DNA of 64,000 bases, from positions 32,731 to 96,730 of the IMG/VR virus record IMGVR_UViG_3300021963_000063. One strand, given 5' to 3'. The position numbers and the translations under genes are program-made. The DNA is from a virus. Below, piece by piece: positions 1 to 64,000 of the stretch (positions are counted from its first letter, which is position 1; each line of letters begins with the position of its first letter). The notes under the pieces are model-generated. The model was not told the DNA's origin and made no database searches. It worked only from the letters and a program-made list of their open reading frames with translations.

Positions 1-1
1 T

Positions 2-1369
2 CCATCTATCGAATGTAACCTTCTTAATTCTAAACCCTCTTGATCTAAGTTCAAGAATATAATTCTTTACATCCTTAAACTCAACAGTCTTATCTGCTGT
101 TGGAGTCCACCACCTAACTGCATCAACAACAACAAATGGATTAATTACTTCATGATCATTAAAAGTATTAATTGTTACCCACTTATCAACGTGTGCAAGG
201 GCTACCGCACAGTGGTCATGCTTTTGTGCAAGGTCAACGTGAATATAATATTCTTTATCTTCTTGTGGCTTAAATGATTCAAAGAATCTTCCAGAGGCAT
301 CTACACCATTTGTACCACTAAAACAAGTTTCAATCTTTTCTCTTGAACGGAAGAAAGCATCAACAGCGTCTGGTGGCATACAGGCAAAACGAGAAAGAGC
401 ATCAATTGGATTTGTGTAAAATGCAATTTTAAAATCATCAATACTTCTTGTAGGATTGATTTCCCAAGTTGGTCTGCGTAATGCAAAAACTTTAGGAAAC
501 TTGTATGCATTGATATGATCTTCTTCCCATTCAACTGTAAATTCATTTGACGTTACGTTGTCTTCTACTGTTTCGTCAAGCTTAAATGTGTAGTCTTTAA
601 TCTTTACATCTTTGTCTGCAATTACAGCATCATATCTAGTTTGAATATAATCATTTTTATAACGAGGGAAGGAAAGCAATACTACTTTTCCAAAGTCAGG
701 GAAACGAGAATCTACGGATGCACGATACATCTCATAGATTGCAGAAGCTGTTTTTGCTTGATCATGTCCAGATGTTGATTCTGTTGCAAAGCCTGAGATC
801 TCATCAAGAATTACACATAGTACGTTGTATCCTTCCCATGATTCTCTTTCAGAGTGACCTGAGTGACAAGTAATACCTTTGTCAAAAGTTACAGAACCTG
901 CAGTAGGAGTATACCTACCCTGGAACCAAGGTGACTTATCCAATCTTGTTTTAAAACCTTTAAAGAAAACATTCTTAGCCTGTTCAGAGTTAATAGCAAT
1001 ATTAAGAATATCAATAGAGTCACCTGGAGGCTTTCCATAATACTTTGCAGGGTCTTTTAGACACAACAATAAATAAACCATATAGCTTACAGAAATGGTT
1101 GACATATAATCTTTTCCTGAACCCTTGCCAAGTTGTAAGATTACTTCGTTGCAGGTTTGATTCCACCTGTCTAATCCAGTTCTTTCTCCATAAAGATTTA
1201 TCAAAGTTTCTTTTTTATAAATTTGACTCATTGCTTTAATAGCATCGTACTGATATTTTGATAGTGGAGGAAGACCTAGATAATCTTCTGATGTAACAAA
1301 CTCTTCAAGTTCAACTGGATTTTCTTCAAACTCATCACCGCCAAGAAGACCAATAATATCTTCAAACAT
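2..1369 (-). CDS. terL: Terminase large subunit (runs off the window start)
   Basis: Translated by hand from ATG 1369 (TAATG overlap): MFEDIIGLLGG...; Walker A-like LGKGSGKD, Walker B VILDE, coupling motif LLSFP. Absent from the ORF track because its stop lies outside the window. Confidence 0.9.
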   Translation of the reverse strand, partial: MFEDIIGLLGGDEFEENPVELEEFVTSEDYLGLPPLSKYQYDAIKAMSQIYKKETLINLYGERTGLDRWNQTCNEVILQLGKGSGKDYMSTISVSYMVYLLLCLKDPAKYYGKPPGDSIDILNIAINSEQAKNVFFKGFKTRLDKSPWFQGRYTPTAGSVTFDKGITCHSGHSERESWEGYNVLCVILDEISGFATESTSGHDQAKTASAIYEMYRASVDSRFPDFGKVVLLSFPRYKNDYIQTRYDAVIADKDVKIKDYTFKLDETVEDNVTSNEFTVEWEEDHINAYKFPKVFALRRPTWEINPTRSIDDFKIAFYTNPIDALSRFACMPPDAVDAFFRSREKIETCFSGTNGVDASGRFFESFKPQEDKEYYIHVDLAQKHDHCAVALAHVDKWVTINTFNDHEVINPFVVVDAVRWWTPTADKTVEFKDVKNYILELRSRGFRIKKVTFDRW

Positions 1370-1884
1370 TAGATCTCCTCTGCTTGACCTGTTACTTTGC
1401 TAAGCTTTCCAAATACAATTGGCTTACATCTTTCACAACCAGAAACTACATCACGAATAATCTCAACAAGCATCTGTTGCTTTTCTTCTGTCTCAACAAT
1501 CTTTTCAGCCATCTCATTGTTATCAAGCATACCTGCTTTTTGAAGCATATCTATTTGTTTTTGTTGAACATCTGCAACAAGTTTTAGTGCTGCAGTTTGT
1601 TGCGGAAGCTGTCCTTGTCTTTTAGCTTCTTCAATAACTTCCCACGCCTCTTTAATAAGCATCGAGTAATGTTGGTCTGCACCTGCTAGTGCCTCACGAG
1701 CACGAACCTGAACTTGCCTATCGCTACGAATAACCATACGCCATTCGTCAAGGTATTCAATAACTTCAGCCCTCTTAAAGCCTGTTGCTTTAGAAATAGT
1801 TGTAGGGTTTGTATTACCCCTTAAAAACTCTTCCGCAACCTTATTAATGTTTTCCCAGCGATTTGCTAGTTCAATTTCAGACAT
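1369..1884 (-). CDS. Probable terminase small subunit
   Basis: N-terminal HTH-like segment, helical oligomerisation region, directly upstream of and coupled to terL. Confidence 0.6.
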   Translation of the reverse strand: MSEIELANRWENINKVAEEFLRGNTNPTTISKATGFKRAEVIEYLDEWRMVIRSDRQVQVRAREALAGADQHYSMLIKEAWEVIEEAKRQGQLPQQTAALKLVADVQQKQIDMLQKAGMLDNNEMAEKIVETEEKQQMLVEIIRDVVSGCERCKPIVFGKLSKVTGQAEEI

Positions 1885-2146
1885 TCTTCTTTACTCTTTT
1901 CTTCTTAGGTTTAATTATACCCTTAAAGTCGTGCAAATAAAAGGATCTATAGCCAGTTTGACCAATTACGTCAATCCATTCCTTGCCTGATTCAATGTTT
2001 TTTACATGCTTTTCAAACTTAAATTGTCCACGAACACTCTTTATTTTAACTAATGTTCCTGGAGTAATAAGTTCTTTGCCGTATTGATATTCAAATGATA
2101 CCTCCCAGTTAGGGTTGTAGTTCATCTGAACTCTTTTCTTTGCCAT
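1877..2146 (-). CDS. Hypothetical small beta-rich (SH3-like) protein
   Basis: ORF track; likely start MAKKRV at 2146, just after the upstream stop. Confidence 0.6.
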   Translation of the reverse strand: MAKKRVQMNYNPNWEVSFEYQYGKELITPGTLVKIKSVRGQFKFEKHVKNIESGKEWIDVIGQTGYRSFYLHDFKGIIKPKKKRVKKNV

Positions 2147-2147
2147 T

Positions 2148-2321
2148 TTAACGGAATCCACCAGCAGTTGGAGCCCAAACAGATACGTTACCCAGAGTCC
2201 AACTACGCTTTAAGATATCTCCACATTCATTACAAACTTGATGGTCTCTATCATCTACATTAACTCCAGACATTTCAATTGACTTATCACACTTAATGCA
2301 GGTATATTCATAAGTAGGAAT
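2148..2321 (-). CDS. FmdB-family zinc-ribbon protein with apparent ATT start
   Basis: Manual translation (M)PTYEYTCIKC...CNECG...WAPTAGGFR*, 57 aa; GGAAGG SD upstream; fills the gap exactly. Confidence 0.8.
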   Translation of the reverse strand: MPTYEYTCIKCDKSIEMSGVNVDDRDHQVCNECGDILKRSWTLGNVSVWAPTAGGFR

Positions 2322-2322
2322 T

Positions 2323-2568
2323 TTATTTACCTTCCAATCTATTTATTTCATCATTAATGTAAAATATTGCTTTTTGCAAATCTTCAATTTGTCTTTTATC
2401 ATCTTTAATTCCAGCTCTCCAAAGATACTTGAAGGCATTACCAATGTTAAAATTTCTGTGACGAGTAATCTGAATGCATTCAACACCAGAGGGGTCTGAT
2501 GTGTAGTGCATTGGGTGGTTTACCTGATCAACTTCAATGTGAAACTTATCATTCTTATATTCGTGCAT
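2323..2568 (-). CDS. DUF3310-family protein
   Basis: Signature DQVNHPxHY...ECI...GNAFKYLWRAGxK...EDLQKAxFY. Confidence 0.85.
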   Translation of the reverse strand: MHEYKNDKFHIEVDQVNHPMHYTSDPSGVECIQITRHRNFNIGNAFKYLWRAGIKDDKRQIEDLQKAIFYINDEINRLEGK

Positions 2569-3598
2569 TTAAATCTCCATATATTTCTTTAATTCTAGGT
2601 ACAGCGTGTCTAGCCGTAACATCTTCCCAGTTCCATTCTTTATGAATATCAATTGACTTATTAAAAGAATCCTGGAATTCTTGTTCTCTATTATTATATA
2701 CCTCTCGCATATTATATCTTACTGAATCAATTTTTGGAAGGTATATTTGTCCTAAATAGGTATCTTGTAGGTAATCTGGAAGACCATCTGGCACATCTAC
2801 TAAATCACTTTCAATCTTATGAGATATAAAATCTTTATATTCTGCCCATTCCCAAGTTGTAATTGTTGGAAGTCCCGTTGCCATTGCTTCAAGTGGCATC
2901 ATACCAAAACCCTCCCCCCAAGAAGGGTATACTAAGCAGTGAGTATTATGTAGCATCTTTAAGTAATCATTAAAACCTAAAGACTGTTTTATTGTTTTAA
3001 CATTCTTGTATGCAACTTCTGGTGCAACCTTTTTACCTGTACCATCATCAACTAGGATTGTATGACCACGATCATATGCTTTAATAATCATAATTACATC
3101 TTCGTTATCTGCAAACTCTTCTAGGAAAGCTTCAACTGCTACCTGACCACCTTTACGAACATATGGCTCTCCAGTATGCAGGAAGAAAAACTTATCTTCT
3201 CTTAACTTTCTTTTTGCAGGAACAAACTTTCCAGATACTCCGTGTGGGTAAACATTGATTGGCTTATCAACTTTCTTTCTAAAAACATCTGCTGTCCATG
3301 TTGATGCAGCCCATACCTCATCTGCTTTGTTTAAGCACTCTGCCCAGTAGTCAGATATCTCTGTTGTCTCATGAGAGGAATAAGAAATATTATATGCTCC
3401 TGAAAACATAATGTGTTGATGTGGGGTAGCAAATGAAAGATTAACTTTAGAGTTTAGATCAAAGTTAGATAAATGAAAACCATTATCAACAAAGCCCTGA
3501 GCCATATTTGCAGCAGCAGTTGGGTATCCCATATCCTGCTTACTAAAACCTTTATGAAGATTAACTCCCGTAAGATTTAACTTTATCTTTTCTTCCAT
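2555..3598 (-). CDS. Glycosyltransferase, GT4 (GT-B fold)
   Basis: RKG motif and PSWGEGFGMMPLEAMATG (EX7E). Confidence 0.9.
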   Translation of the reverse strand: MEEKIKLNLTGVNLHKGFSKQDMGYPTAAANMAQGFVDNGFHLSNFDLNSKVNLSFATPHQHIMFSGAYNISYSSHETTEISDYWAECLNKADEVWAASTWTADVFRKKVDKPINVYPHGVSGKFVPAKRKLREDKFFFLHTGEPYVRKGGQVAVEAFLEEFADNEDVIMIIKAYDRGHTILVDDGTGKKVAPEVAYKNVKTIKQSLGFNDYLKMLHNTHCLVYPSWGEGFGMMPLEAMATGLPTITTWEWAEYKDFISHKIESDLVDVPDGLPDYLQDTYLGQIYLPKIDSVRYNMREVYNNREQEFQDSFNKSIDIHKEWNWEDVTARHAVPRIKEIYGDLNARI

Positions 3599-3747
3599 GT
3601 CCTCTGATCCCTAATTAATCCAAAGTCTACCAGATGCCTGTATATGGTCTGATGACTTGTATCACATTCTTTTGCTATCTCTTCGATGGTCTTCTTATCT
3701 GTTAAGTACCTCTTAGATAGCCACACCTTTGACTTGTAGAGCTTCAT
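3583..3747 (-). CDS. Small HTH DNA-binding protein (54 aa)
   Basis: Manual translation MKLYKSKVWLSKRY...KTIEEIAKECDTSHQTIYRHL; ATGA overlap with the upstream gene. Confidence 0.75.
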   Translation of the reverse strand: MKLYKSKVWLSKRYLTDKKTIEEIAKECDTSHQTIYRHLVDFGLIRDQRTWKKR

Positions 3748-4313
3748 ACACGCTCCGTAAGCGTTTTATATGCGTAATAGGCTATTCCTACTGCATCGCC
3801 AACATCATTGTCTGAGATTGATGTACCAAACTTATCATTGAAGAAATCCATAGTCTTTTGTTTTCTAATTTCTCTAATTTTAGACTTGTACCATGTTACT
3901 GATTTACCTGGAAATTGATTTTGAATCTCAAGCTTTTGTGCCTTTGTGAAATTATTGTTTCCAATATAAGACTGCCAGGAAATTGGAGCAACTGTTACTA
4001 CATTAGTTTCTGGCTTTAAGATAACTGACAAGATAGCACCAACTACCATAGCAATCTTAATCCCAGCATCTGGTGACTTAACCATAATTGCTGATTCAAC
4101 CGCAACATAATCTGGATTACAAAGTTTTGCAATTGCCTTAGCCTTGTTGTTAGCATCCTTAATTTTATCATATATGTCTGAGCCTAAAATTGGAAGCTTA
4201 CCCATTAGCACTGGTGTGCCATCCTCAAATAAACAAAACGCAACAGATGCAGTAGAGGCATCTATTCCTAATACTCTATCTGCTTTTTGTTTTAGAAGTT
4301 TTGATAATTGCAT
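3744..4313 (-). CDS. RuvC-like Holliday junction resolvase/nuclease
   Basis: VLGIDAS, VAVES and DNDVGDAVGIA acidic motifs; likely start MQLSK at 4313. Confidence 0.75.
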   Translation of the reverse strand: MQLSKLLKQKADRVLGIDASTASVAFCLFEDGTPVLMGKLPILGSDIYDKIKDANNKAKAIAKLCNPDYVAVESAIMVKSPDAGIKIAMVVGAILSVILKPETNVVTVAPISWQSYIGNNNFTKAQKLEIQNQFPGKSVTWYKSKIREIRKQKTMDFFNDKFGTSISDNDVGDAVGIAYYAYKTLTERV

Positions 4314-4578
4314 TTTGAATTGCCTCCTTTGCATGATTTGCTTTTTCCTTTTTCTTTTTATTTTGACACATTGCACATGTAGAATCTGGATTATGCATAC
4401 TTAAAGGAGATCCGCAAGAACATAGCCTTACCTTTCCTGCAAGTCTTTCTTTCTTTGCATAATACTTTTCCATAATTCTTTTGTTTGTAGAAACTCTGCA
4501 GCATGTTTGCGAGCAGTATTTTTGATTATGAGTCCTAAACTCAAAATCATTTCCACATTCAATACAGGCTTTGATCAT
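4276..4578 (-). CDS. Cys-rich zinc-finger protein
   Basis: CxxC...YCSxxC...CxC...CxxC. Confidence 0.65.
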   Translation of the reverse strand: MIKACIECGNDFEFRTHNQKYCSQTCCRVSTNKRIMEKYYAKKERLAGKVRLCSCGSPLSMHNPDSTCAMCQNKKKKEKANHAKEAIQNAIIKTSKTKSR

Positions 4579-56925: not shown

Positions 56926-56947
56926 AGTATGGCATAGGGGTATGACA
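56926..56947 (-). promoter_or_regulatory. PafBC/RecA-NDp-type promoter (variant)
   Basis: TGTCAT-ACCCCTATGC-CATACT. Confidence 0.65.
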
Positions 56948-57005
56948 ATTTCTGCCCTATTTTGGGCGTGTCGCATAATTATTTTTGTGATGTACACCAC
57001 ACTAC

Positions 57006-57134
57006 TTATACACAACCTTATACACATATGTGTATAACCTGTGGATAACCGCCTCGGGCATTTTTTCAGCCATTTGTCAATACGACACACCGTAAATCTC
57101 ACTGGAATTTTATCTGTGGATAACCTGTGGATTA
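57006..57134. promoter_or_regulatory. DnaA-box cluster 1
   Basis: TTATNCACA or its reverse at 57006, 57018, 57029, 57040, 57115; one mismatch at 57126. Confidence 0.8.
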
Positions 57135-57136
57135 TT

Positions 57137-57154
57137 GTTCACCTAATGTTCACC
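57137..57154 (+). promoter_or_regulatory. PHO-box-like direct repeat
   Basis: GTTCACC-taat-GTTCACC. Confidence 0.55.
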
Positions 57155-57232
57155 TAAACACACCCCTAAAACACCTAAAATTGTCAGCCCCCCCTGATAC
57201 GCTGAAAGCATAGAAAGAAAGGAGTGATTCAA

Positions 57233-57343
57233 ATGAAAAACTTACTAATCGTGGCTAAGTGCCAATGTTGTGAGGACAACTACCGTCTAGAAGAATTAGA
57301 TTCTGACGGTTACTGTTCAGGTTGTATCGAATACACCCTCTAA
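57233..57343 (+). CDS. 36-aa Cys-rich micro-protein
   Basis: MKNLLIVAKCQCCED...YCSGC; AAGGAG SD. Confidence 0.7.
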   Translation: MKNLLIVAKCQCCEDNYRLEELDSDGYCSGCIEYTL

Positions 57344-57400
57344 AACTGTCAGACCTATCTGATAGACTCAAACTACTAAACAAAAAGAAAGAGGTCACAA

Positions 57401-57586
57401 ATGACTTACTTAGTAACAAATAAGAGAGACGGTATCTCTAACGAATACATCTCTATTCATTCTGCCTTGCAAATGGTTGCAAGTTGCTATGACGGTGCAG
57501 GTATCACTTGCGAAATCGTCAATACAGAAACAGGGGAACAGGTAGAAATCTACCGCAACCCACTAACAGGTTGGAAGGTGGCTTAA
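57401..57586 (+). CDS. Hypothetical early protein
   Basis: ORF track; SD and promoter upstream. Confidence 0.7.
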   Translation: MTYLVTNKRDGISNEYISIHSALQMVASCYDGAGITCEIVNTETGEQVEIYRNPLTGWKVA

Positions 57587-57745
57587 ATGGCTTACACTAA
57601 ATTAAAGAATGCATCACTACTAGTAGATGCTATGAAACAATTGGAAGATGCGAAAGCAACTGCCCTAGAATTTCCTGCACACCAAAGAATGGTGGACTAT
57701 TGGGAAAATCAAATTCAAATCTTGACTAAGCGTGTCTACAGGTAA
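57587..57745 (+). CDS. Hypothetical early protein (52 aa)
   Basis: MAYTKLKNAS...; GAAGGTG SD. Confidence 0.65.
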   Translation: MAYTKLKNASLLVDAMKQLEDAKATALEFPAHQRMVDYWENQIQILTKRVYR

Positions 57746-57803
57746 AACTGTCAGACCCCTATGCTAGAATCAAACTACTAAACAAAAAAGAAAGGTGGTC
57801 ACA

Positions 57804-58019
57804 ATGACTACACTAAACACAAGAGAATTCATAGATTCTTACAATGCACTAAACAAGGCTAAGCACCCACTTAGCCACACCTCAAGTTCTGGCTATGTTG
57901 CATTAGCAACAATTCTAGAAATCTCAATTAACTGGAAACAGGGTATCAAGCAGATACAAGATACGCTAGATGAAAAATCTGCACAATGGAAAAACGAATT
58001 AGAAAGTTTGGTGAAATAA
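57804..58019 (+). CDS. Hypothetical early protein
   Basis: ATG 57804 after AAGGTGG. Confidence 0.7.
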   Translation: MTTLNTREFIDSYNALNKAKHPLSHTSSSGYVALATILEISINWKQGIKQIQDTLDEKSAQWKNELESLVK

Positions 58020-58020
58020 A

Positions 58021-58188
58021 ATGATGACACGCAAAGACTATGTAGCAGTCGCAGAAATTCTAAACTCTTACCACTTGGAAATTGAAGCACAAACTTTTGA
58101 GGATTTGCTTTCAGACTTCCAAACATTTTTCAAAAGAGATAATTCTAATTTTGACTTAACACGATTCAGAGATGCGGTGATGAAATAA
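58021..58188 (+). CDS. Hypothetical early protein (55 aa)
   Basis: MMTRKDYVAVAEIL...NSNFDLTRFRDAV. Confidence 0.7.
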   Translation: MMTRKDYVAVAEILNSYHLEIEAQTFEDLLSDFQTFFKRDNSNFDLTRFRDAVMK

Positions 58189-58332
58189 TGAATAGTTTTT
58201 ATTCTTGGATTTTAATTTTATCTTTAGCAAGTTTAGTTTTTTTAATCGGACAGGAAAAATAAAATGGAAATGTTTTTAGTTTTTATTTTTGGTCTGATCG
58301 CATTGGGAGTAATTTCAAAATACACAGACTAA
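58188..58332 (+). CDS. Two single-TM micropeptides (58188-58262, 58264-58332)
   Basis: MNSFYSWILILSLASLVFLIGQEK and MEMFLVFIFGLIALGVISKYTD; coupled stops and starts. Confidence 0.55.
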
Positions 58333-58393
58333 AAAAAATCCAAAGCTTCTGGGCGTGTTGACTTGACATTCCCAGAAATTTTGGCTCGGGGCG

Positions 58394-58468
58394 TTTTCCA
58401 CAACTTATCCACAGCTGTTAAGAACCTGTGTATAACTCACGGGAATTCTGGGGATAACCTGTGTATAA
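58394..58468. promoter_or_regulatory. DnaA-box cluster 2
   Basis: Perfect boxes at 58405, 58427, 58460; one mismatch at 58394 and 58449. Confidence 0.75.
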
Positions 58469-58471
58469 AAA

Positions 58472-58489
58472 GTTTACCAAATGTTTACC
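58472..58489 (+). promoter_or_regulatory. PHO-box-like direct repeat
   Basis: GTTTACC-aaat-GTTTACC. Confidence 0.5.
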
Positions 58490-58554
58490 TTAGACACGCT
58501 TAAAAGTCCCAAAATTGTCAGACCCCTCTGCTAAAGTGAAACTATAAATAAATA

Positions 58555-58612
58555 GTTAAGTATGAGCCTAGCAAATAAACCGCAAGGGTGAGCCTAGCAA
58601 ATAAGACTTAAC
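58555..58612 (+). ncRNA. 5'UTR RNA motif, twofold-symmetric double copy
   Basis: GUUAAGU...ACUUAAC encloses 2x UGAGCCUAGCAAAUAA joined by ACC-GCAA-GGG. Confidence 0.65.
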
Positions 58613-58632
58613 ACTAACGAAAGGAATACAAA

Positions 58633-58818
58633 ATGTATTCACTAACTATCGAAGAACTATTGGTGGGTCAGCGTTACACCTCTAGTCGTGGATTCGCTGG
58701 AGAAATTATCACTGCTGAAAAGCGTGAAGATACTATGAGCGATAGTGCTTATCTAATCTATGTCCGTCAAGACGGATTCCCTTACTACTTCTATTCAACA
58801 GTTGAGGTGACTGCATAA
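58633..58818 (+). CDS. Small beta-rich early protein
   Basis: ORF track; GAAAGGA SD. Confidence 0.7.
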   Translation: MYSLTIEELLVGQRYTSSRGFAGEIITAEKREDTMSDSAYLIYVRQDGFPYYFYSTVEVTA

Positions 58819-58973
58819 TGAATGAATTTATTTGTTGTTTTTGTGAAACAGAAATGAGTGAAGAACAAATTATTTGTTGCGACACTTACAAGGGTAAAAT
58901 GTCTTTGAAAGATTTTGAAGAAATTTATGGTTACACCTTAGTAACTCTTGACTACCAATACGAGGATTGCTAA
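58818..58973 (+). CDS. Acidic Cys-rich micro-protein (51 aa)
   Basis: MNEFICCFCETE...; TAATG coupling. Confidence 0.65.
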   Translation: MNEFICCFCETEMSEEQIICCDTYKGKMSLKDFEEIYGYTLVTLDYQYEDC

Positions 58974-59165
58974 ATGGGTTATGTAGAAATTTTTGAAATG
59001 AATTCCAATGGTGCAGGTTGGACAAATTTAGATGACCTGCCCGTTGGTGATGTAATCGAAATGCAATTTGAACTTTCAACTAATCCTAGCGTTCAATTGC
59101 TCTGTGCCTTTTGCCTTGTGCCAATTCCTAGTGGCTCAGGTAACGCCTGTGGAAAACATAAATAG
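58974..59165 (+). CDS. Hypothetical protein with C-terminal CxxC...CxxH
   Basis: ORF track. Confidence 0.65.
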   Translation: MGYVEIFEMNSNGAGWTNLDDLPVGDVIEMQFELSTNPSVQLLCAFCLVPIPSGSGNACGKHK

Positions 59166-59199
59166 TTATCCACAAGAGCTATCCACAGCCTGTGGATAA
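59166..59199. promoter_or_regulatory. DnaA-box cluster 3
   Basis: TTATCCACA 59166, CTATCCACA 59179, TGTGGATAA 59191. Confidence 0.75.
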
Positions 59200-59322
59200 C
59201 CGCCCGAGCACATTTTTATCCTGGTGTCAATTACGACATTACTAAAAAATCACGAGAATCACAGGAAAAATGTCAGACCCTTATGCTAGTATCAGAGATA
59301 CCTACTAAGAAATGAGCACTAC

Positions 59323-59856
59323 ATGACATACGCAACTCTATACCGCAACATTGCTAAGACCGCAACACCTGCACAAATTGAACAAGCCACGCAATGGTAT
59401 GCAGATGCAGAATTACTTGCTAGTGATCTAATCAGAATTTATCAGTCAAGAGGAATTAATCTAACACTAGAACATACCGCTAGTATCATTTCATCATTCT
59501 CACCTCGTCAGCGTTGGAATCGTAACGTAGTGCAAGCATTAGAATTTGCTCATGGAGGTGAGCCAAAAGGCTTAGGCAATAATCTACGCATGGCAAAACA
59601 ATCACAAGAAATTGGTTTCGATGCACTTAAGGGACTAAAGACAAATGCATTCGCTCGTGCAATTGCTGGCGATGATGATGCTATAACAATTGATGTGTGG
59701 ATGTGTTATGCAGCAGGACTAGATACCAATGCACCTAACAAAACACAATACAGAGAATTATCTGAGGCTGTAAGAATTGTTGCAAGCGAAATGAAAATGA
59801 CACCTAGAGTTATGCAAGCCCTGATCTGGATTATCTACAGGGGCAGTGCAGCTTGA
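59323..59856 (+). CDS. Helical protein resembling the HhH-GPD DNA glycosylase fold
   Basis: SPRQRW, GLKTNAF, ITIDVWM, MQALIW pattern. Confidence 0.5.
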   Translation: MTYATLYRNIAKTATPAQIEQATQWYADAELLASDLIRIYQSRGINLTLEHTASIISSFSPRQRWNRNVVQALEFAHGGEPKGLGNNLRMAKQSQEIGFDALKGLKTNAFARAIAGDDDAITIDVWMCYAAGLDTNAPNKTQYRELSEAVRIVASEMKMTPRVMQALIWIIYRGSAA

Positions 59857-59990
59857 CAGAGCCACCGAAAGGTGCTCGGGGCTTCCAGCTCCTTACCTAA
59901 TTACGACATTACTAATAACTCACAGGAATCACTGGAAAATGTCAGTGGTCTATGCTAAGATGATTTCATCATCAACCGAAAGGGTTTTCA

Positions 59991-60143
59991 ATGAAAACTT
60001 CAGTTCCAGATTTCGTTTCAGATTTCCAAGTTCAGTTTGAAGAGTGGGTTATGTCAATCCACGAAGACCTATGCACCTGTCAGGCTTGTGACCCAGAGTT
60101 TCACATGGAGTTGCTTGAAGAGTGGGAAGGTATGGTGTGGTAA
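59991..60143 (+). CDS. Acidic micro-protein (50 aa) with CxCxxC
   Basis: MKTSVPDFVSDF...; GAAAGG SD. Confidence 0.65.
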   Translation: MKTSVPDFVSDFQVQFEEWVMSIHEDLCTCQACDPEFHMELLEEWEGMVW

Positions 60144-60155
60144 AGGGCTCGGGGC

Positions 60156-60171
60156 TGTGACCTATCTCACA
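60156..60171. promoter_or_regulatory. CRP/GlxR-type site
   Basis: TGTGA-cctatc-TCACA. Confidence 0.6.
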
Positions 60172-60260
60172 TTTACGATTAAGTGAAATATCACGAAGAT
60201 CACGAGAATTGTCAGACCCCTGTGCTATGCTATGAGCATACCTACAGAAATGGAAATGCT

Positions 60261-60512
60261 ATGTTTACACTAAACAAAATTACTAAGAATGAAGAACTAA
60301 ACTATTTTGTATCTTCACACCCTTGCCCAAATTGCGATAGCACTTTATCAGTTGAGATTACTCCTGATAAGTTGTACGCATACAACCAAGGGGCTTATGC
60401 CCAAGATGTATTGTCTGCCTATGATGCAGGTGTGCGTGAGCGTTTCATTAGTGGAATGTGTGAAATTTGTTGGGGACTAATGTTTGACTTTGACGATGAT
60501 GATGAGGAATAA
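60261..60512 (+). CDS. Zinc-ribbon protein with acidic tail
   Basis: CPNC...RERFISGMCEICW; start downstream of promoter 60210. Confidence 0.7.
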   Translation: MFTLNKITKNEELNYFVSSHPCPNCDSTLSVEITPDKLYAYNQGAYAQDVLSAYDAGVRERFISGMCEICWGLMFDFDDDDEE

Positions 60513-60543
60513 AATTGTCAGACCTCTCTGATAAGGTATACCT

Positions 60544-60681
60544 ATGAATTACAAAACACCAGACCACCCTGAACGCTTGAGGGCTAGACTTGAACTACGC
60601 AGGTCAAGTGCCTCACAACCACACAAGTCCAAAAAGGCTTACACACGCAAGACCAAACACAAGAACCTACAAGGAGAATAA
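60544..60681 (+). CDS. Basic 45-aa leaderless protein (ArfA-like C-terminal motif)
   Basis: TAAGGT-N6-ATG; ...LELRRSSASQPHKSKKAYTRKTKHK. Confidence 0.65.
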   Translation: MNYKTPDHPERLRARLELRRSSASQPHKSKKAYTRKTKHKNLQGE

Positions 60682-60682
60682 A

Positions 60683-60979
60683 ATGGGAAGAAACTTCGCA
60701 ACAGAATTATCCGCTATGGATACTATGCCACTTGAGCAACAGATTAACTTGCACTTGCAATACAACTTCTATCCACCTGTACCGTCCTCAATGGTACAAC
60801 CTTGCATTGAAGCAATTGACGCTTATTGGGACGAGGACATTTATCGTGAAATAGAAATGCCATTAGGAGTTTCTTATCGTGGTAGTGATACTGCACCTGC
60901 TCACGCTATCGTTGAACAACACCGCTTAGATTCCTGGCTAAGCGAACTAGATGACTACTATGAAGATGAAGAGGTTTAA
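60683..60979 (+). CDS. Acidic hypothetical protein
   Basis: AAGGAG SD; start MGRNFA. Confidence 0.7.
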   Translation: MGRNFATELSAMDTMPLEQQINLHLQYNFYPPVPSSMVQPCIEAIDAYWDEDIYREIEMPLGVSYRGSDTAPAHAIVEQHRLDSWLSELDDYYEDEEV

Positions 60980-60981
60980 TT

Positions 60982-61188
60982 ATGTGGCAACTACAAGCAA
61001 ACTGTGATGAAACAAATACAGAACTATTCTTTAGCAAACTAGAAAGTAAAGTTGCTAAAGCAAAAGCCCTATGTGGCAGTTGTGCAGTTGCAGACAAGTG
61101 TTTGCAATTTGCATTAGATACAGAAATTGAATTTGGTATTTTTGGTGGAGTCACCGCAGACGAAAGGAAAGCACTTGTTTCAAACTAA
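60982..61188 (+). CDS. whiB: WhiB-family Fe-S transcription factor
   Basis: C...CxxC-x5-C and GIFGG turn. Confidence 0.9.
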   Translation: MWQLQANCDETNTELFFSKLESKVAKAKALCGSCAVADKCLQFALDTEIEFGIFGGVTADERKALVSN

Positions 61189-61366
61189 CTTAGTAGTGAA
61201 CTTTACCAATGGTGAAAGTAAAACTTATTTAGATGTTCACCCTGACCAAAGTTTCTTTATCCATAATGAGATGCTTACATTAGAAACGCTAAACGGTGAG
61301 ATGATTTGGTACATACCTGCCGTATCTGTAATTGACTACTACACAGAATGCGTGAGGGTTTCATAA
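61175..61366 (+). CDS. Hypothetical protein
   Basis: TTG start after GAAAGGA. Confidence 0.55.
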   Translation: MFQTNLVVNFTNGESKTYLDVHPDQSFFIHNEMLTLETLNGEMIWYIPAVSVIDYYTECVRVS

Positions 61367-61511
61367 CTTGACAAAAGCTCCGAAAGGGGCTCGGGGGGAT
61401 TTTTTTTGAAATGTCAATTACGACACGCTCAAAAACTCACTGAAAAAAACACTAGAAATTGTCAGACCCTTGTGGTAATGTATACACATAACCTACTAAG
61501 AAAGAGAAAAA

Positions 61512-61643
61512 ATGACAGACCAGCAACTTGTAGATAAAATTGTTGATTTATTTGATGCAGTCATTGACGAGAGTGCATTGGATAGATTATCAGAAGAAGA
61601 ACTAAAAGCAATTGACAAAATACTAACGGAAGCAGGTTACTAA
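61512..61643 (+). CDS. Acidic helical micro-protein (43 aa)
   Basis: MTDQQLVDKIVDLFD... Confidence 0.65.
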   Translation: MTDQQLVDKIVDLFDAVIDESALDRLSEEELKAIDKILTEAGY

Positions 61644-61644
61644 A

Positions 61645-61983
61645 ATGGGTGCAAGAATTAATTTCGTATTTGATGACGGAACAGATAGCCTAGTTAATCT
61701 TTATTCACATTGGGGTGAGACTGATTGGGAAAATGATTTAATAGGTGCATTGATACACGCACAGAAACGCAAAGGTGACTATTCATACTTTACTCGTATG
61801 GTTATCTCACACCTAATTAAAGACTATGTTTTAGATGAAACTGGTTTTGGTATCTATGCAATTAACCGTTCAGAAATTGCTAACAATTTTGATAAGACAG
61901 TTGTATTAGATTTAGTAAATAACACATTGACAGATTTAGACAATGATAAGACAGTTGAACTATATGGAAAGGTATTTGCATAA
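61645..61983 (+). CDS. Phage hypothetical protein
   Basis: MGAR...LYSHWG motif. Confidence 0.7.
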   Translation: MGARINFVFDDGTDSLVNLYSHWGETDWENDLIGALIHAQKRKGDYSYFTRMVISHLIKDYVLDETGFGIYAINRSEIANNFDKTVVLDLVNNTLTDLDNDKTVELYGKVFA

Positions 61984-62132
61984 TGGCAAAGATGAAAACA
62001 ATTGAAATGATTCTAATGGAAAACCACCCTGATGGAATTTACAATGAAGATGATGTATGGGAAGCAATTGCAGAAGCAAATGGCATGGACTATTCAGAAA
62101 TAGCAGACGGAGATTTAGCAGAATGGCTATAA
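61983..62132 (+). CDS. Highly acidic micro-protein (49 aa)
   Basis: MAKMKTIE...EDDVWEAIAEANGMDYSEIADGDLAEWL. Confidence 0.65.
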   Translation: MAKMKTIEMILMENHPDGIYNEDDVWEAIAEANGMDYSEIADGDLAEWL

Positions 62133-62254
62133 AACTATTTAATAAGAAACCAGAACTAATCGAAGATACATTTACTAAGTTAGATAGACTAATGAGTGAA
62201 ATGGCATCTACTGACATCTACATCGAATACCTTGAATTAAGGGAGGGTATGTAA
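62123..62254 (+). CDS. Hypothetical micro-protein
   Basis: MAIKLFNKK...; GGAG SD. Confidence 0.55.
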   Translation: MAIKLFNKKPELIEDTFTKLDRLMSEMASTDIYIEYLELREGM

Positions 62255-62459
62255 TGGCATTTGGTATCCTAATGGTATTGACTGTATACTCATTTATTGT
62301 TATGATAATGCTATACACAGACAAAGTTGAAAGCGAATGGGATAGTCAATAATGGAAATATTTTTTGGGGCAATTGGTCTGCTAATATTGTTTGGAGTGC
62401 TTATGTCTAATGGCAAGGGTACACCACACGATGAGGAAGATGGTTGGTATGATTACTGA
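62254..62459 (+). CDS. Two single-TM micropeptides (62254-62352, 62352-62459)
   Basis: MAFGILMVLTVYSFIVMIMLY... and MEIFFGAIGLLILFGVLM...; TAATG couplings. Confidence 0.6.
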
Positions 62460-62664
62460 GTATAAAGAAATAGATCAACTAATTGGAATGACTATTGAGC
62501 CAGGTGATATGGTAAAGCTGCCTAATGGTGATATTGTAAATATCATTCGCACTGAACCCACCGCAACAGGCTATGATTTATTCTTCTTAGATTTGTTTGA
62601 AGATGAGGAACTGGTTTACAGTTTAGACGACAATGAAAAGGTAACACTCCTAGAATTTGACTAG
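62449..62664 (+). CDS. Small SH3-like acidic protein
   Basis: IEPGDMVKL pattern; start MITEYK. Confidence 0.6.
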   Translation: MITEYKEIDQLIGMTIEPGDMVKLPNGDIVNIIRTEPTATGYDLFFLDLFEDEELVYSLDDNEKVTLLEFD

Positions 62665-62710
62665 GGGTGCTGCCCCGAGCTCATAACTTGCCAAATGTCA
62701 AGTTACGATG

Positions 62711-62726
62711 TGTGATTTAAGTCACA
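62711..62726. promoter_or_regulatory. CRP/GlxR-type site
   Basis: TGTGA-tttaag-TCACA. Confidence 0.6.
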
Positions 62727-62811
62727 GGAAATTAGATGTAAAAAAGACTAGAAATTGTCAGACCTATCTGCTAAGATGTTAGCATAACAACAACATAGAA
62801 AAGAGAAGCAA

Positions 62812-62967
62812 ATGGATAAAATCCAAACACCAACTGTTGGCTCACAGTTCACGACTGCTAAGTCAGGCGTAACAGGAACAGTTCAGGAAGTAATCAAAAA
62901 TACTACTGGCTCACTCCGTATTCGTCTTGATGTAAATGGTCAAGACCGTTGGACTACTGTAAAGTAG
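62812..62967 (+). CDS. Small beta-barrel-like protein (51 aa)
   Basis: MDKIQTPTVGSQFTTAKSGVTG...DRWTTVK. Confidence 0.7.
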   Translation: MDKIQTPTVGSQFTTAKSGVTGTVQEVIKNTTGSLRIRLDVNGQDRWTTVK

Positions 62968-63050
62968 TTTTAGTTATGGGGTCTGGCAAAACTGTCAGAC
63001 CCCTATGCTAAGATTATTTTAATAAACTACCTACAAATAAGGAGACCCAA

Positions 63051-63536
63051 ATGGGACTAGACATGTATCTTCGTGCGAATGAGTATGTATCACGCAACGA
63101 TTGGACTCGTAATGACAAAGGTGAATTAGTTGATAGCCCTAATTCATTGTTTCAACAAATTGTTGAGACTCTTGAGTTAGAAAACATTATTGACAATACT
63201 GGATTTGCTGGAATGAGCATTGACTTACCAATGGGTTACTGGCGTAAGGCTAATCAAATCCATAACTGGTTTGTTGAAAACTTAGCAGACGGTGTTGATG
63301 AATGTCAGCCAATTGTAGTTCGTAGAGAAGATTTAGAAACTCTAAAAGAATTGTGTATTCAAGTTCTTGCTGTGAAAGAATTAGCAGAAGATTTATTACC
63401 AAGTGCTTCAGGTTTCTTCTTTGGTTCAACTACCTATGATGAATACTACTATAGTGATTTGAATGACACCATTGGTATTATTAACAAGTGTCTTGAAAGC
63501 AAGTTTGATTACTTTGAATACCAAGCATCTTGGTAG
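63051..63536 (+). CDS. Phage hypothetical protein
   Basis: MGLDMYL...YWRKANQIHNWF...GFFFG...YQASW; AAGGAG SD. Confidence 0.8.
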   Translation: MGLDMYLRANEYVSRNDWTRNDKGELVDSPNSLFQQIVETLELENIIDNTGFAGMSIDLPMGYWRKANQIHNWFVENLADGVDECQPIVVRREDLETLKELCIQVLAVKELAEDLLPSASGFFFGSTTYDEYYYSDLNDTIGIINKCLESKFDYFEYQASW

Positions 63537-63594
63537 TAGGGCAGTGCCTGAATCCATAAACCTGCTACAGCCACGCAGGTAAAATAAGGGGGAC

Positions 63595-63630
63595 AGTCCT
63601 GAGTACCATACCCAGACTATAAACTGCTCA
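63595..63630 (+). ncRNA. H-type pseudoknot just 5' of the tRNA
   Basis: AGUC/GACU stem; loop UGAGUA pairs with downstream UGCUCA. Confidence 0.5.
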
Positions 63631-63634
63631 CCCT

Positions 63635-63708
63635 GGTCTGTTAGCTCAATTGGTTAGAGCACTACCCTGTCACGGTAGAGGTTGTGGGTTCAAGTCCCAT
63701 ACAGATCG
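63635..63708 (+). tRNA. tRNA-Asp(GTC), CCA not encoded
   Basis: Acceptor GGTCTGT/ACAGATC, D arm, CTACC-CTGTCAC-GGTAG, T loop GTTCAAGT. Confidence 0.95.
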
Positions 63709-63851
63709 CAAAAAGGGCTCGGGGCTCAGCTCCCTATTTGTCAATTACGACACGCCTAAAAATATCACGAAGTTTCTTAAAATAAGTATTGATTATTGTC
63801 AGACCTATGGTGTATAGTTAAACTATTAAACAAACAAACAAAGGAATAAAA

Positions 63852-64000
63852 ATGTCAATTGACCAAATTGAAATCATAGACGGCAAGGCTTCTTATGCTT
63901 CCTTGCGTGTACCTGCCTACCACCAATTAGGAACTGTCTTTCAGAATGAAGTTTCTACATCAGAGATGCTTTCACTAGCAAACCTTGACAACTGGAATGT
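63852..64000 (+). CDS. DUF932/DUF945-like protein (partial)
   Basis: ...RVPAYHQLGTV...EMLSLANLDNW N-terminal pattern. Confidence 0.6.
   Translation, partial: MSIDQIEIIDGKASYASLRVPAYHQLGTVFQNEVSTSEMLSLANLDNWN

Follow-up and report, generated by a model that had tools for sequence, protein, structure and literature searches.

Repeated promoter cassettes with host-regulator-like boxes in the putative early-gene arm of a freshwater phage

Introduction

Phages are known to borrow single host regulators, as seen for LexA, PhoB and NtcA sites and for the DnaA boxes of lambda, and Pho boxes occur in cyanophages. Here, we describe a 64,000-nt stretch of phage DNA (IMG/VR record IMGVR_UViG_3300021963_000063, positions 32,731-96,730; "the window" denotes this stretch at its full length), in which a region of very small genes is punctuated by repeated promoter cassettes that combine words resembling the sites of several host regulators. 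What seems new is that the whole early region appears wired to a damage-alarm promoter class, with up to three further host-regulator words placed on a common scaffold, and that this architecture holds across >100 related lake contigs. A preliminary description of the region had reported eight cassettes of constant internal order and read them as a host-state sensing panel or a transcription factor sponge; the observation is confirmed by the analysis presented below, and the interpretation is partly supported.

Among described systems, the core promoter is nearest to the PafBC (RecA-NDp) promoters of Mycobacterium and other Actinobacteria, which act by "sigma adaptation". Their published motif is tGTCgg(N10)tA(N3)T, with the 5' part at -23 to -28, no -35 element, and a GTC triplet that is read by PafB (PMC8635444). 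In the literature that we searched, this class is described only for bacterial repair genes, and we found no paper on phage promoters of this kind. As whole units, the cassettes recall the mobile promoter-early stem-loop (PeSL) cassettes of T4-type phages (PMC2839356, PMC4122927). Their optional parts are comparable to class I CRP/GlxR sites and to PHO boxes, the latter built in Streptomyces of 11-nt direct repeat units with the 7-nt conserved core GTTCACC (PMC4415409), and their GC-rich core to the stoperators of Cluster A mycobacteriophages.

Core Promoter and Transcription Start

The core promoter has the form TGTCAG-N10-TAnnnT. It occurs 12 times from 57182 to 63818, always on the + strand, while the window at its full length would yield 1.07 copies by chance. 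A 13th copy (TGTCAT) diverges on the - strand at 56947-56926 and a 14th is found at genome position 146; a relaxed scan of the 96.7 kb yields no others. The same element recurs in related phages: at 18 loci fetched via their DUF7178 gene it occurs 5-16 times per locus, and the consensus drawn from 181 unique instances is RAAAW-TGTCAGACC-YnTnTGn-TAnRnT, in which a pyrimidine-A is also conserved 7 nt past the hexamer. The general form is RAAAW-TGTCAGACC-N7-TAnnnT, and most copies possess an extended -10 (TGn). The comparative counts that follow refer to 834 unique promoters from 117 related phage loci, of which the -150 to -5 region was searched and compared with random windows of the same loci. 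In this set, the -26 word is TGTCAGACC in 427 cases, TGTCAGTGG in 107 (the phage described here itself uses it at 59940) and TGTCGGTGG in 38, and GTC is retained in the orthologous -26 variants seen (TGTCAC, TGTCAT, TGTCGT).

The 13 copies in the window and the 834 in relatives show the bipartite 22-nt layout of the PafBC motif with its conserved GTC. Like PafBC promoters, the phage copies consist of TGTC.G, 10 nt and TAnnnT, keep GTC in all variants seen, have no -35 hexamer, and carry the upstream element at -28 to -23 of the predicted start; relatives even possess the exact mycobacterial TGTCGGTG word. Unlike them, they drive early genes and not repair genes, favour the TGTCAGACC word, and have a strong extended -10 (TGn) with an A-tract just upstream; their PafBC reader is putative. 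No -35 hexamer stands at 16-18 bp, since only 11 bp separate TTGTCA from the -10. An additional sigma-70 promoter at TTGTCA/TTGACA was considered and rejected, as no fitting -10 was found by eye and the scan matches were at chance level. In the region as a whole, sigma-70-type promoters are as frequent as in shuffled sequence (20 found, 21 expected). Since such promoters are at chance level and the phage has no sigma or WYL gene, a host-read promoter would be needed for infection to start.

The start site can be placed with the help of leaderless genes. Downstream of the 834 promoters, 43 leaderless open reading frames (ORFs) of at least 40 codons were found, the ATG lying exactly +28 from the T of TGTC in 31 and +29 in 12. 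The window contains one such case, the short promoter at 60516-60546 (+), where the start codon (ATG) of the gene 60544-60681 follows the T of TGTC at a distance of exactly 28 nt. As a leaderless ATG at +28 places the start at that position, transcription probably begins 28 nt after TGTC, with TGTCAG at -28 to -23.

Boxes Upstream of the Promoters

The words combined in the cassettes are enriched 8- to >100-fold upstream of the 834 promoters (117 contigs). As relatives have kept them, these words are presumably functional, and the comparison supports that the boxes are real, selected cis-elements and not chance words.

CRP-type sites (16-bp TGTGA-N6-TCACA) are found upstream of 352 of the 834 promoters, against 45 expected, and in 183 of 507 upstream regions once similar ones are collapsed. 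The 16-mers start at -44, -54, -64/-65 and -75 from TGTC, with a Rayleigh z of 78.6 at a 10.5-bp period. Occurrence above chance in relatives and face-of-helix positioning are both traits expected of CRP/GlxR sites. The resemblance to the class I type extends to the perfect 16-bp palindromes with a free spacer and to the location upstream of the core promoter, in steps of ~10.5 bp on one face of the helix. In the window, two sites are perfect (62711 and 60156) and one has one mismatch (56986); all three lie upstream of promoters, at offsets of -45, -54 and -54, respectively, which are among those preferred in relatives. The site at 62711 precedes a 51-aa gene (62812-62967). In ~19 of 30 lineages, with protein identities as low as 50%, its orthologues have retained both arms of the palindrome upstream, although the N6 spacer and the flanks diverge. 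The 51-aa protein itself is very widely conserved in the phage group (>50 tblastn hits) and has no Pfam match.

DnaA-like boxes (at most one mismatch) number 44 in the window, against 22.6 expected, and form clusters at 57006-57134, 58394-58468 and 59148-59199. The ~19 boxes of these clusters, within 2.2 kb, 4 of them perfect 9-mers (TTATCCACA) and ~15 with one mismatch, constitute a clustered-box arrangement. Two or more DnaA-like boxes accompany 135 of the 834 promoters of relatives (12 expected), and perfect 9-mers were counted 164 + 95 times (259 in all) near these promoters, where a composition-based estimate of chance gives ~1 per orientation.

The PHO-like repeat occurs twice in the window (0.06 expected), as GTTCACCTAAT GTTCACCTAAA at 57137-57158 and as a weaker copy at 58472-58493; it consists of two 11-nt direct repeat units with the GTTCACC core. 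Among relatives, it is present at 16 of the 834 promoters (1.2 expected), and in 15 of these 16 it belongs to a composite, CTGTGGATAAC-CTGTGRRTTAT-TGTTCACCTAATGTTCAYCTAA, i.e., two DnaA boxes followed by the PHO repeat, at an offset of -44/-45. The phage repeat shares with PhoP/PhoB-type PHO boxes, such as those of Streptomyces coelicolor, the two 11-nt direct repeats and the GTTCACC core (PMC4415409). It differs in being always fused to two DnaA boxes and in lying at about -72 to -51 and not over the -35 region. Its reader could be any regulator of the OmpR family, e.g., MtrA. A further enriched word is TTACGA[CA]A, found at 54 of the 834 promoters against 6 expected.

Cassette Architecture

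We found that 8 of the 12 plus-strand promoters lie within paralogous cassettes of 100-130 bp, which align over ~75-100 bp; the minus-strand promoter also belongs to a longer unit. The four promoters without a cassette (57347, 57749, 60516 and 62993) are each located directly past a stop codon. Within the cassettes, the GC core is followed after 26-30 nt by TTACGA (TTACGACA), and this after 18-19 nt (~20 in c63797) by the TCAC box (TCACnnGAA). The distance from the TCAC box to the promoter varies, and the optional inserts, namely CRP-type palindromes, DnaA boxes and the PHO-type 11-nt direct repeat, sit there or beside the core. The order given in the preliminary description is confirmed. The core GCTCGGGG occurs 6 times in the window (0.17 expected), TTACGACA 4 times (0.92 expected), in all four cases inside cassettes, and TCACNNGAA 15 times (9.1 expected), 9 of the 15 within these 7 kb. 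That description needs some small corrections. The TTACGA element, said to be absent from the cassette with its core at 58384, is represented there by the variant GTTAAGAAC (58417-58425), which replaces TTACGACA across one subgroup of relatives. Two cores are degenerate, namely CCTCGGGC at 57052 and GCCCGAGC at 59202; the latter is also inverted, as is the core at 62673. Several cassettes are headed by CTTGACA and by hairpins with a GNRA loop (GAAA), features that the preliminary description had missed. Dividing the intergenic gaps into long and short ones by means of ORFs proved unreliable owing to spurious ORFs.

Going through the region from left to right, the diverging cassette of the minus-strand genes (56926-57001, -) holds, besides the promoter TGTCATACC..TA...T (56947-56926), the box TTATGCGACACGCC as the reverse complement of 56964-56977, and a CRP-like site (TGTGATGTACACCACA, 56986-57001) with one mismatch and at offset -54. 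Next to it, cassette c57182 (57006-57203, +) begins with four DnaA-like boxes (57006-57048), which are followed by the core CCTCGGGC (57052-57059), TGTCAATACGACA (57075-57087), TCACTGGAA (57099-57107), DnaA boxes at 57115 and 57126, the first PHO-type repeat and the promoter at 57182-57203. Two short promoters without a cassette (57347-57368 and 57749-57770, both +) separate it from cassette c58516 (58362-58537, +). This cassette carries CTTGACA at 58362, the core GCTCGGGG at 58384-58391, DnaA-like boxes at 58394, 58405, 58427, 58449 and 58460, the GTTAAGAAC variant, TCACGGGAA at 58437, the second PHO-type repeat and the promoter at 58516-58537. In cassette c59271 (59148-59292, +), four DnaA-like boxes including an inverted pair (59148-59199) precede the inverted core GCCCGAGC (59202-59209), TGTCAATTACGACA (59225-59238), two TCACnnGAA boxes (59250-59267) and the promoter (59271-59292).

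Cassette c59940 (59852-59961, +) consists of CTTGACA at 59852, a GAAA-loop hairpin (59859-59877), the core GCTCGGGG (59874-59881), TTACGACA (59901-59908), two TCACnnGAA boxes (59920-59937) and a promoter beginning with TGTCAGTGG (59940-59961). In c60210 (60147-60231, +), the core (60147-60154) is followed by the perfect CRP-type palindrome TGTGACCTATCTCACA (60156-60171, offset -54), TTACGATT (60173-60180), TCAC boxes (60191-60208) and the promoter (60210-60231). Cassette c61460 (61361-61481, +) starts with the inverted box TCATAACTTGACA (61361-61373) and a GAAA-loop hairpin (61376-61391), continues with the core (61389-61396) and a T-run, and ends with TGTCAATTACGACA (61412-61425), TCACTGAAA (61437) and the promoter (61460-61481). 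Cassette c62756 (62664-62777, +) possesses a hairpin (62664-62676), the inverted core CCCCGAGC (62673-62680), an inverted box (62681-62693), TGTCAAGTTACGAT (62696-62709), the perfect CRP-type palindrome TGTGATTTAAGTCACA (62711-62726, offset -45) and the promoter (62756-62777). After one more short promoter without a cassette (62993-63014, +), the series closes with c63797 (63635-63818, +), where a tRNA-Asp gene (63635-63709, +) precedes the cassette, with its core at 63717-63724, TGTCAATTACGACA at 63739-63752, TCACGAAG at 63765-63772 and the promoter at 63797-63818. Apart from this tRNA, no known RNA families were found in the cassettes.

The 13-bp box TGTCAAGTTAYGA is also present in inverted form at 61361-61373 (TCATAACTTGACA), where it adjoins the terminator hairpin, and at 62681-62693 (TCATAACTTGCCA), 2 bp from a forward copy. 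Extended to CGACACGCC, it is repeated more widely across the whole phage group than any other GC-rich word, and on either strand. In addition, the long leader at 58538-58632, and likewise that at 56926-56860 (-), contains two TGAGCCTAGCAAATAA copies around a small hairpin; a leader of this type follows 4 of the 16 promoters of relatives that bear the DnaA-PHO composite. In many early transcripts, the leader word ACCTACWA or ACTACTAA stands just ahead of the ribosome-binding site, both here (57370-57400, 59293-59322, 61482-61511) and in relatives.

GC Core, Hairpins and Recombination

The GC core is lineage-specific and changes in concert across all cassettes of one genome. It reads GGCTCGGGGC in the phage described here, GGGTCGGCAC in the related loci L003 and L004, GGGGCGACCC in L005 and L012, GGGGTCGACCCC in L007 and L010, CGGGGTACCCCG in L011 and GAGCCGCGCCCC in L013-L019. 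In some relatives it forms a perfect 12-bp palindrome (GGGGTCGACCCC; CGGGGTACCCCG in L011). In 12.5 kb of L007, GGGGTCGACCCC was counted 24 times, in a both-strand 9-mer tally that probably counts a palindrome twice. Like the stoperators of Cluster A mycobacteriophages (L5, Bxb1), the core, a short GC-rich word, recurs at operon boundaries, is lineage-specific and undergoes concerted change. Unlike them, it partly overlaps a hairpin arm, 2 of its 8 copies are inverted, and the phage that carries it looks lytic, with neither a repressor nor an integrase gene detected.

A hairpin stands at the head of 4-5 of the 8 cassettes. Compared with shuffled sequence, clearly better folding was seen in just 2 of the 8 stretches (z -2.3 and -3.9), and a clear hairpin with a T-run is present in one cassette only (61378). 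We therefore rejected the GC core as a plain intrinsic terminator in general. Compensatory changes in the hairpin arms were observed in L002 and L003, e.g., GAGCCACC-GAAA-GGTGCTC vs. GACCCACC-GAAA-GGTGGTC.

In L002, the proteins neighbouring the segment 59958-60185 are 93-98% identical to those of the phage described here, yet the segment itself, with the gene 59991-60143, is missing. The single cassette that remains is a chimera whose left part corresponds to c59940 and whose right part to c60210, the switch lying within the TCAC-TGTCAG stretch. Such an indel junction inside a repeated cassette is the pattern reported for PeSL in T4-type phages (PMC4122927). In a comparison with 21 relatives, 37 of 167 homology-block ends fell within -10 to +30 of a promoter, where 11.6 were expected (~3-fold); many other block ends lie at gene junctions devoid of promoters. 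The cassettes share with PeSL the composite arrangement of a putative terminator and an early promoter, repeated between small genes of unknown function, and, in the case of L002, the indel against a close relative with its junction inside the repeat. They differ in occurring in another phage group and host phylum, in a promoter that is not of the sigma-70 -35/-10 type, in being longer, with extra operator-like boxes, and in offering one clean case of recombination. The cassettes work like PeSL without being members of that family, as promoter type and lineage differ.

Phage Genome and Probable Host

The window represents the last 64 kb of a single virus contig of 96,730 bp, with a GC content of 36% and rated ~90% complete. 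It reads as the genome of a freshwater phage of low-GC actinobacteria, probably lytic; no integrase or resolvase gene was found in it. Positions 1-56,850 of the window are occupied by minus-strand genes, including those for capsid, tape measure, ribonucleotide reductase, Hsp20 and an HNH endonuclease. The plus-strand block of very small genes extends from ~57,200 to the end of the window and continues over genome positions 1-4,340; we read the part at 56.9-63.8 kb as the early-gene arm. The gene at 63852 (63852-64000 in the window) is out of frame with genome position 1, which shows that the contig ends are not contiguous and that part of the early arm is missing.

The sole recognisable regulator in the early arm is a WhiB-like transcription factor (60982-61188, +; PF02467, E 3e-21). 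The early block also encodes a DUF7178 protein, whose homologues in cultured phages are only ~34% identical and come nearly all from phages of Mycobacterium, Rhodococcus, Microbacterium and Gordonia; their occurrence mostly in actinobacterial phages supports an actinobacterial host. When the early region was compared with GenBank phages by blastn, the tRNA was the only match and no close cultured relative was found. Searches with WhiB and ribonucleotide reductase returned exclusively metagenomic, phage-like proteins. In turn, a WhiB-alignment search of bacterial assemblies gave a single match, on a phage-like contig binned in a Phycisphaerales metagenome-assembled genome from Lake Mendota. IMG/VR holds numerous related contigs.

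Two other early-block ORFs have domain matches. A 172-aa ORF at genome positions 3580-4098 (+) has a Pfam match to the Proteasome subunit family (PF00227) that covers residues 2-38 only but, with E 2.4e-5 and 24.5 bits, exceeds the cut-off; the ORF may encode an HslV- or proteasome-beta-like phage protein. A mannose-6-phosphate isomerase C-terminal cupin domain (PF01050, E 5e-29) was found in the ORF at genome positions 3239-3580 (+).

Discussion

We consider it somewhat better than even (roughly 55%) that early transcription in this phage depends on host factors and is tuned operon by operon, as predicted from the consensus matches. No WYL, DnaA C-terminal (DnaA_C), OmpR/PhoB (Trans_reg_C), Crp HTH or sigma domain was detected among the phage genes, and the ~30 early ORFs show no recognisable DNA-binding domain apart from WhiB. 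Given this lack of phage DNA-binding domains besides WhiB, host factors would be the simplest readers of the boxes. The early arm would be cut into micro-operons by repeated terminator-operator-promoter cassettes, and host sigma-A RNA polymerase would read the core promoter together with a host adaptor positioned at its -26 element; the likeliest adaptor is PafBC, which is activated by single-stranded DNA. The constant scaffold (GC core, TGTCAA-TTACGACAC box and TCACnnGAA repeats) would hold the optional boxes, which match the sites of the host global regulators CRP/GlxR, DnaA and PhoP-type response regulators, and these regulators would raise or lower the output of single operons according to the state of the host. 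A cassette with its gene would be a portable unit, and recombination between cassettes could add or remove genes. The motifs, their order, spacing, enrichment, conservation and phasing, as well as the predicted start site, emerge directly from the in silico comparison; which proteins bind, and with what sign of regulation, we infer.

Several points weigh against this reading. For transcription in actinobacteria, an extended -10 can be sufficient, so the TGTCAGACC word might serve some other factor. The inserts given in the preliminary description were all recovered (PHO repeats and DnaA clusters at promoters 57182 and 58516, DnaA boxes at 59271, CRP-type sites at 60210, 62756 and 56947), yet the window count of CRP-like sites with at most one mismatch (3 found, 3.3 expected) is by itself that of chance. 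Relative to class I CRP/GlxR sites, a second population of CRP-type sites, shifted by half a turn, lies at offsets -49/-50, and the centres at -64.5, -74.5 and -85 deviate by ~3 bp from the class I positions of E. coli (-61.5, -71.5 and -82.5). At 36-42% of promoters, these sites are unusually frequent and much denser than one would expect if a phage had borrowed a host regulon, so a phage-made factor could be responsible instead, and the ~30 small early ORFs without a recognisable fold could include unrecognised DNA-binding proteins. Finally, relatives often carry different sets of boxes before one and the same gene; orthologues of 60261-60512, for instance, have a CRP-type site in the phage described here and a DnaA box or a bare scaffold in others. 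While the idea of host-regulator sites is strengthened by the consensus matches, the phasing and the fixed DnaA-DnaA-PHO offset, this variation means that a fixed logic for each operon is not conserved, and the case for such logic is weak.

The boxes could instead be operators for regulators made by the phage, either small early proteins of unknown fold or the phage WhiB acting with the host WhiA at a GACAC box, which would recognise TGTCAGACC, the palindromes and the repeats, their likeness to host consensus sequences being convergent or partial. We regard this as unlikely, although it accommodates several observations. Besides the density of CRP-type sites, the palindrome stands nearly always before one widely conserved gene, that of the 51-aa protein, in the manner of an autoregulated operator. 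The arrangement of no -35, an element near -26/-30 and a good -10 recalls the T4 middle promoters served by MotA/AsiA (mentioned in PMC8635444). The family-wide CGACACGCC box contains the WhiA word GACAC on either strand and at variable spacing, in a phage that encodes WhiB, and published WhiA sites likewise occur on either strand and at variable spacing (PMC10243135); WhiA/WhiB behaviour would fit this box, which we treat as a lead. On the other hand, no DNA-binding domain but WhiB was detected in the early ORFs or elsewhere in the phage, and no other promoter class is present from which such a factor could be made first. Moreover, the four boxes each fit a different known host consensus, perfectly so in the DnaA 9-mer and the GTTCACC 11-nt repeat, and the exact mycobacterial TGTCGGTG word occurs in relatives.

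DnaA-box origins are known in P1 and in plasmids. With this precedent, the clusters at 57006-57134, between the diverging promoters, and at 58394-58468 might form a phage origin that recruits host DnaA, and not transcriptional controls; for the DnaA boxes alone, such a role has a similarly small chance of being correct. The boxes are clustered and in both orientations, and the cumulative GC skew reaches its minimum at 56-58 kb, but this is where the gene strand switches, which alone would produce such a minimum. Furthermore, there are three separate DnaA-like clusters, the two proximal boxes hold a fixed position relative to promoters in many relatives, and relatives bear single DnaA boxes in most of their cassettes. 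An origin is, in any case, compatible with host factors reading the other boxes.

It is far less probable that the region serves as a decoy, with replicating phage DNA drawing DnaA, CRP and PafBC off the chromosome and, e.g., blocking host initiation like E. coli datA. This part of the earlier interpretation found some basis in the ~19 DnaA-like boxes (4 perfect) within 2.2 kb, in a subgroup of relatives with a DnaA box in nearly every cassette and in DnaA boxes that, outside the composite, have no sharply preferred position; indeed, no box other than that of DnaA is abundant enough, and positioned freely enough, to suit titration or an origin. It is weakened by the small number of other sites (just 3 CRP-type and 2 PHO-type per genome here), by the location of all boxes upstream of promoters, and by the helically phased CRP-type sites and the composite at a fixed promoter offset, since phasing and fixed offsets point to stereospecific action on RNA polymerase and would be superfluous in a pure sponge.

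The least probable alternative, that the cassettes are mainly PeSL-like terminators and recombination substrates in which regulator-like words are incidental, draws on the GAAA-loop hairpins, some with T-runs, that head several cassettes, on the compensatory changes that preserve the hairpin in L002 and L003 and on the gene shuffling proposed earlier, for which the chimeric L002 cassette at its indel junction and the ~3-fold excess of block ends at promoter cores speak and the many breakpoints at promoterless junctions do not, but incidental words would not be expected to be phased, fixed in offset or kept amid diverging flanks, and folding better than shuffled is limited to some cassettes. 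Shuffling and regulation are not mutually exclusive.

Dependence of early transcription on host factors can be extended to a more far-reaching proposal, namely that this whole, abundant group of freshwater actinophages makes no early-gene transcription factor but WhiB and that its early programme is a combinatorial read-out of host signals: PafBC would open the promoters upon exposure of single strands by phage or damaged DNA, and phased CRP/GlxR, DnaA and PhoP-type boxes would gate the micro-operons by energy, replication and phosphate. We put this forward tentatively, as a possibility that is doubtful at present. If true, host physiology would dictate how infection proceeds in nutrient-poor lakes. 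More generally, should host factors bind the boxes, the cassettes would provide natural, compact PafBC-type promoters as tools and a testable case of phage regulatory evolution through the swapping of operator modules, and infection of the dominant freshwater actinobacteria would be tied to their phosphate, energy and replication state.

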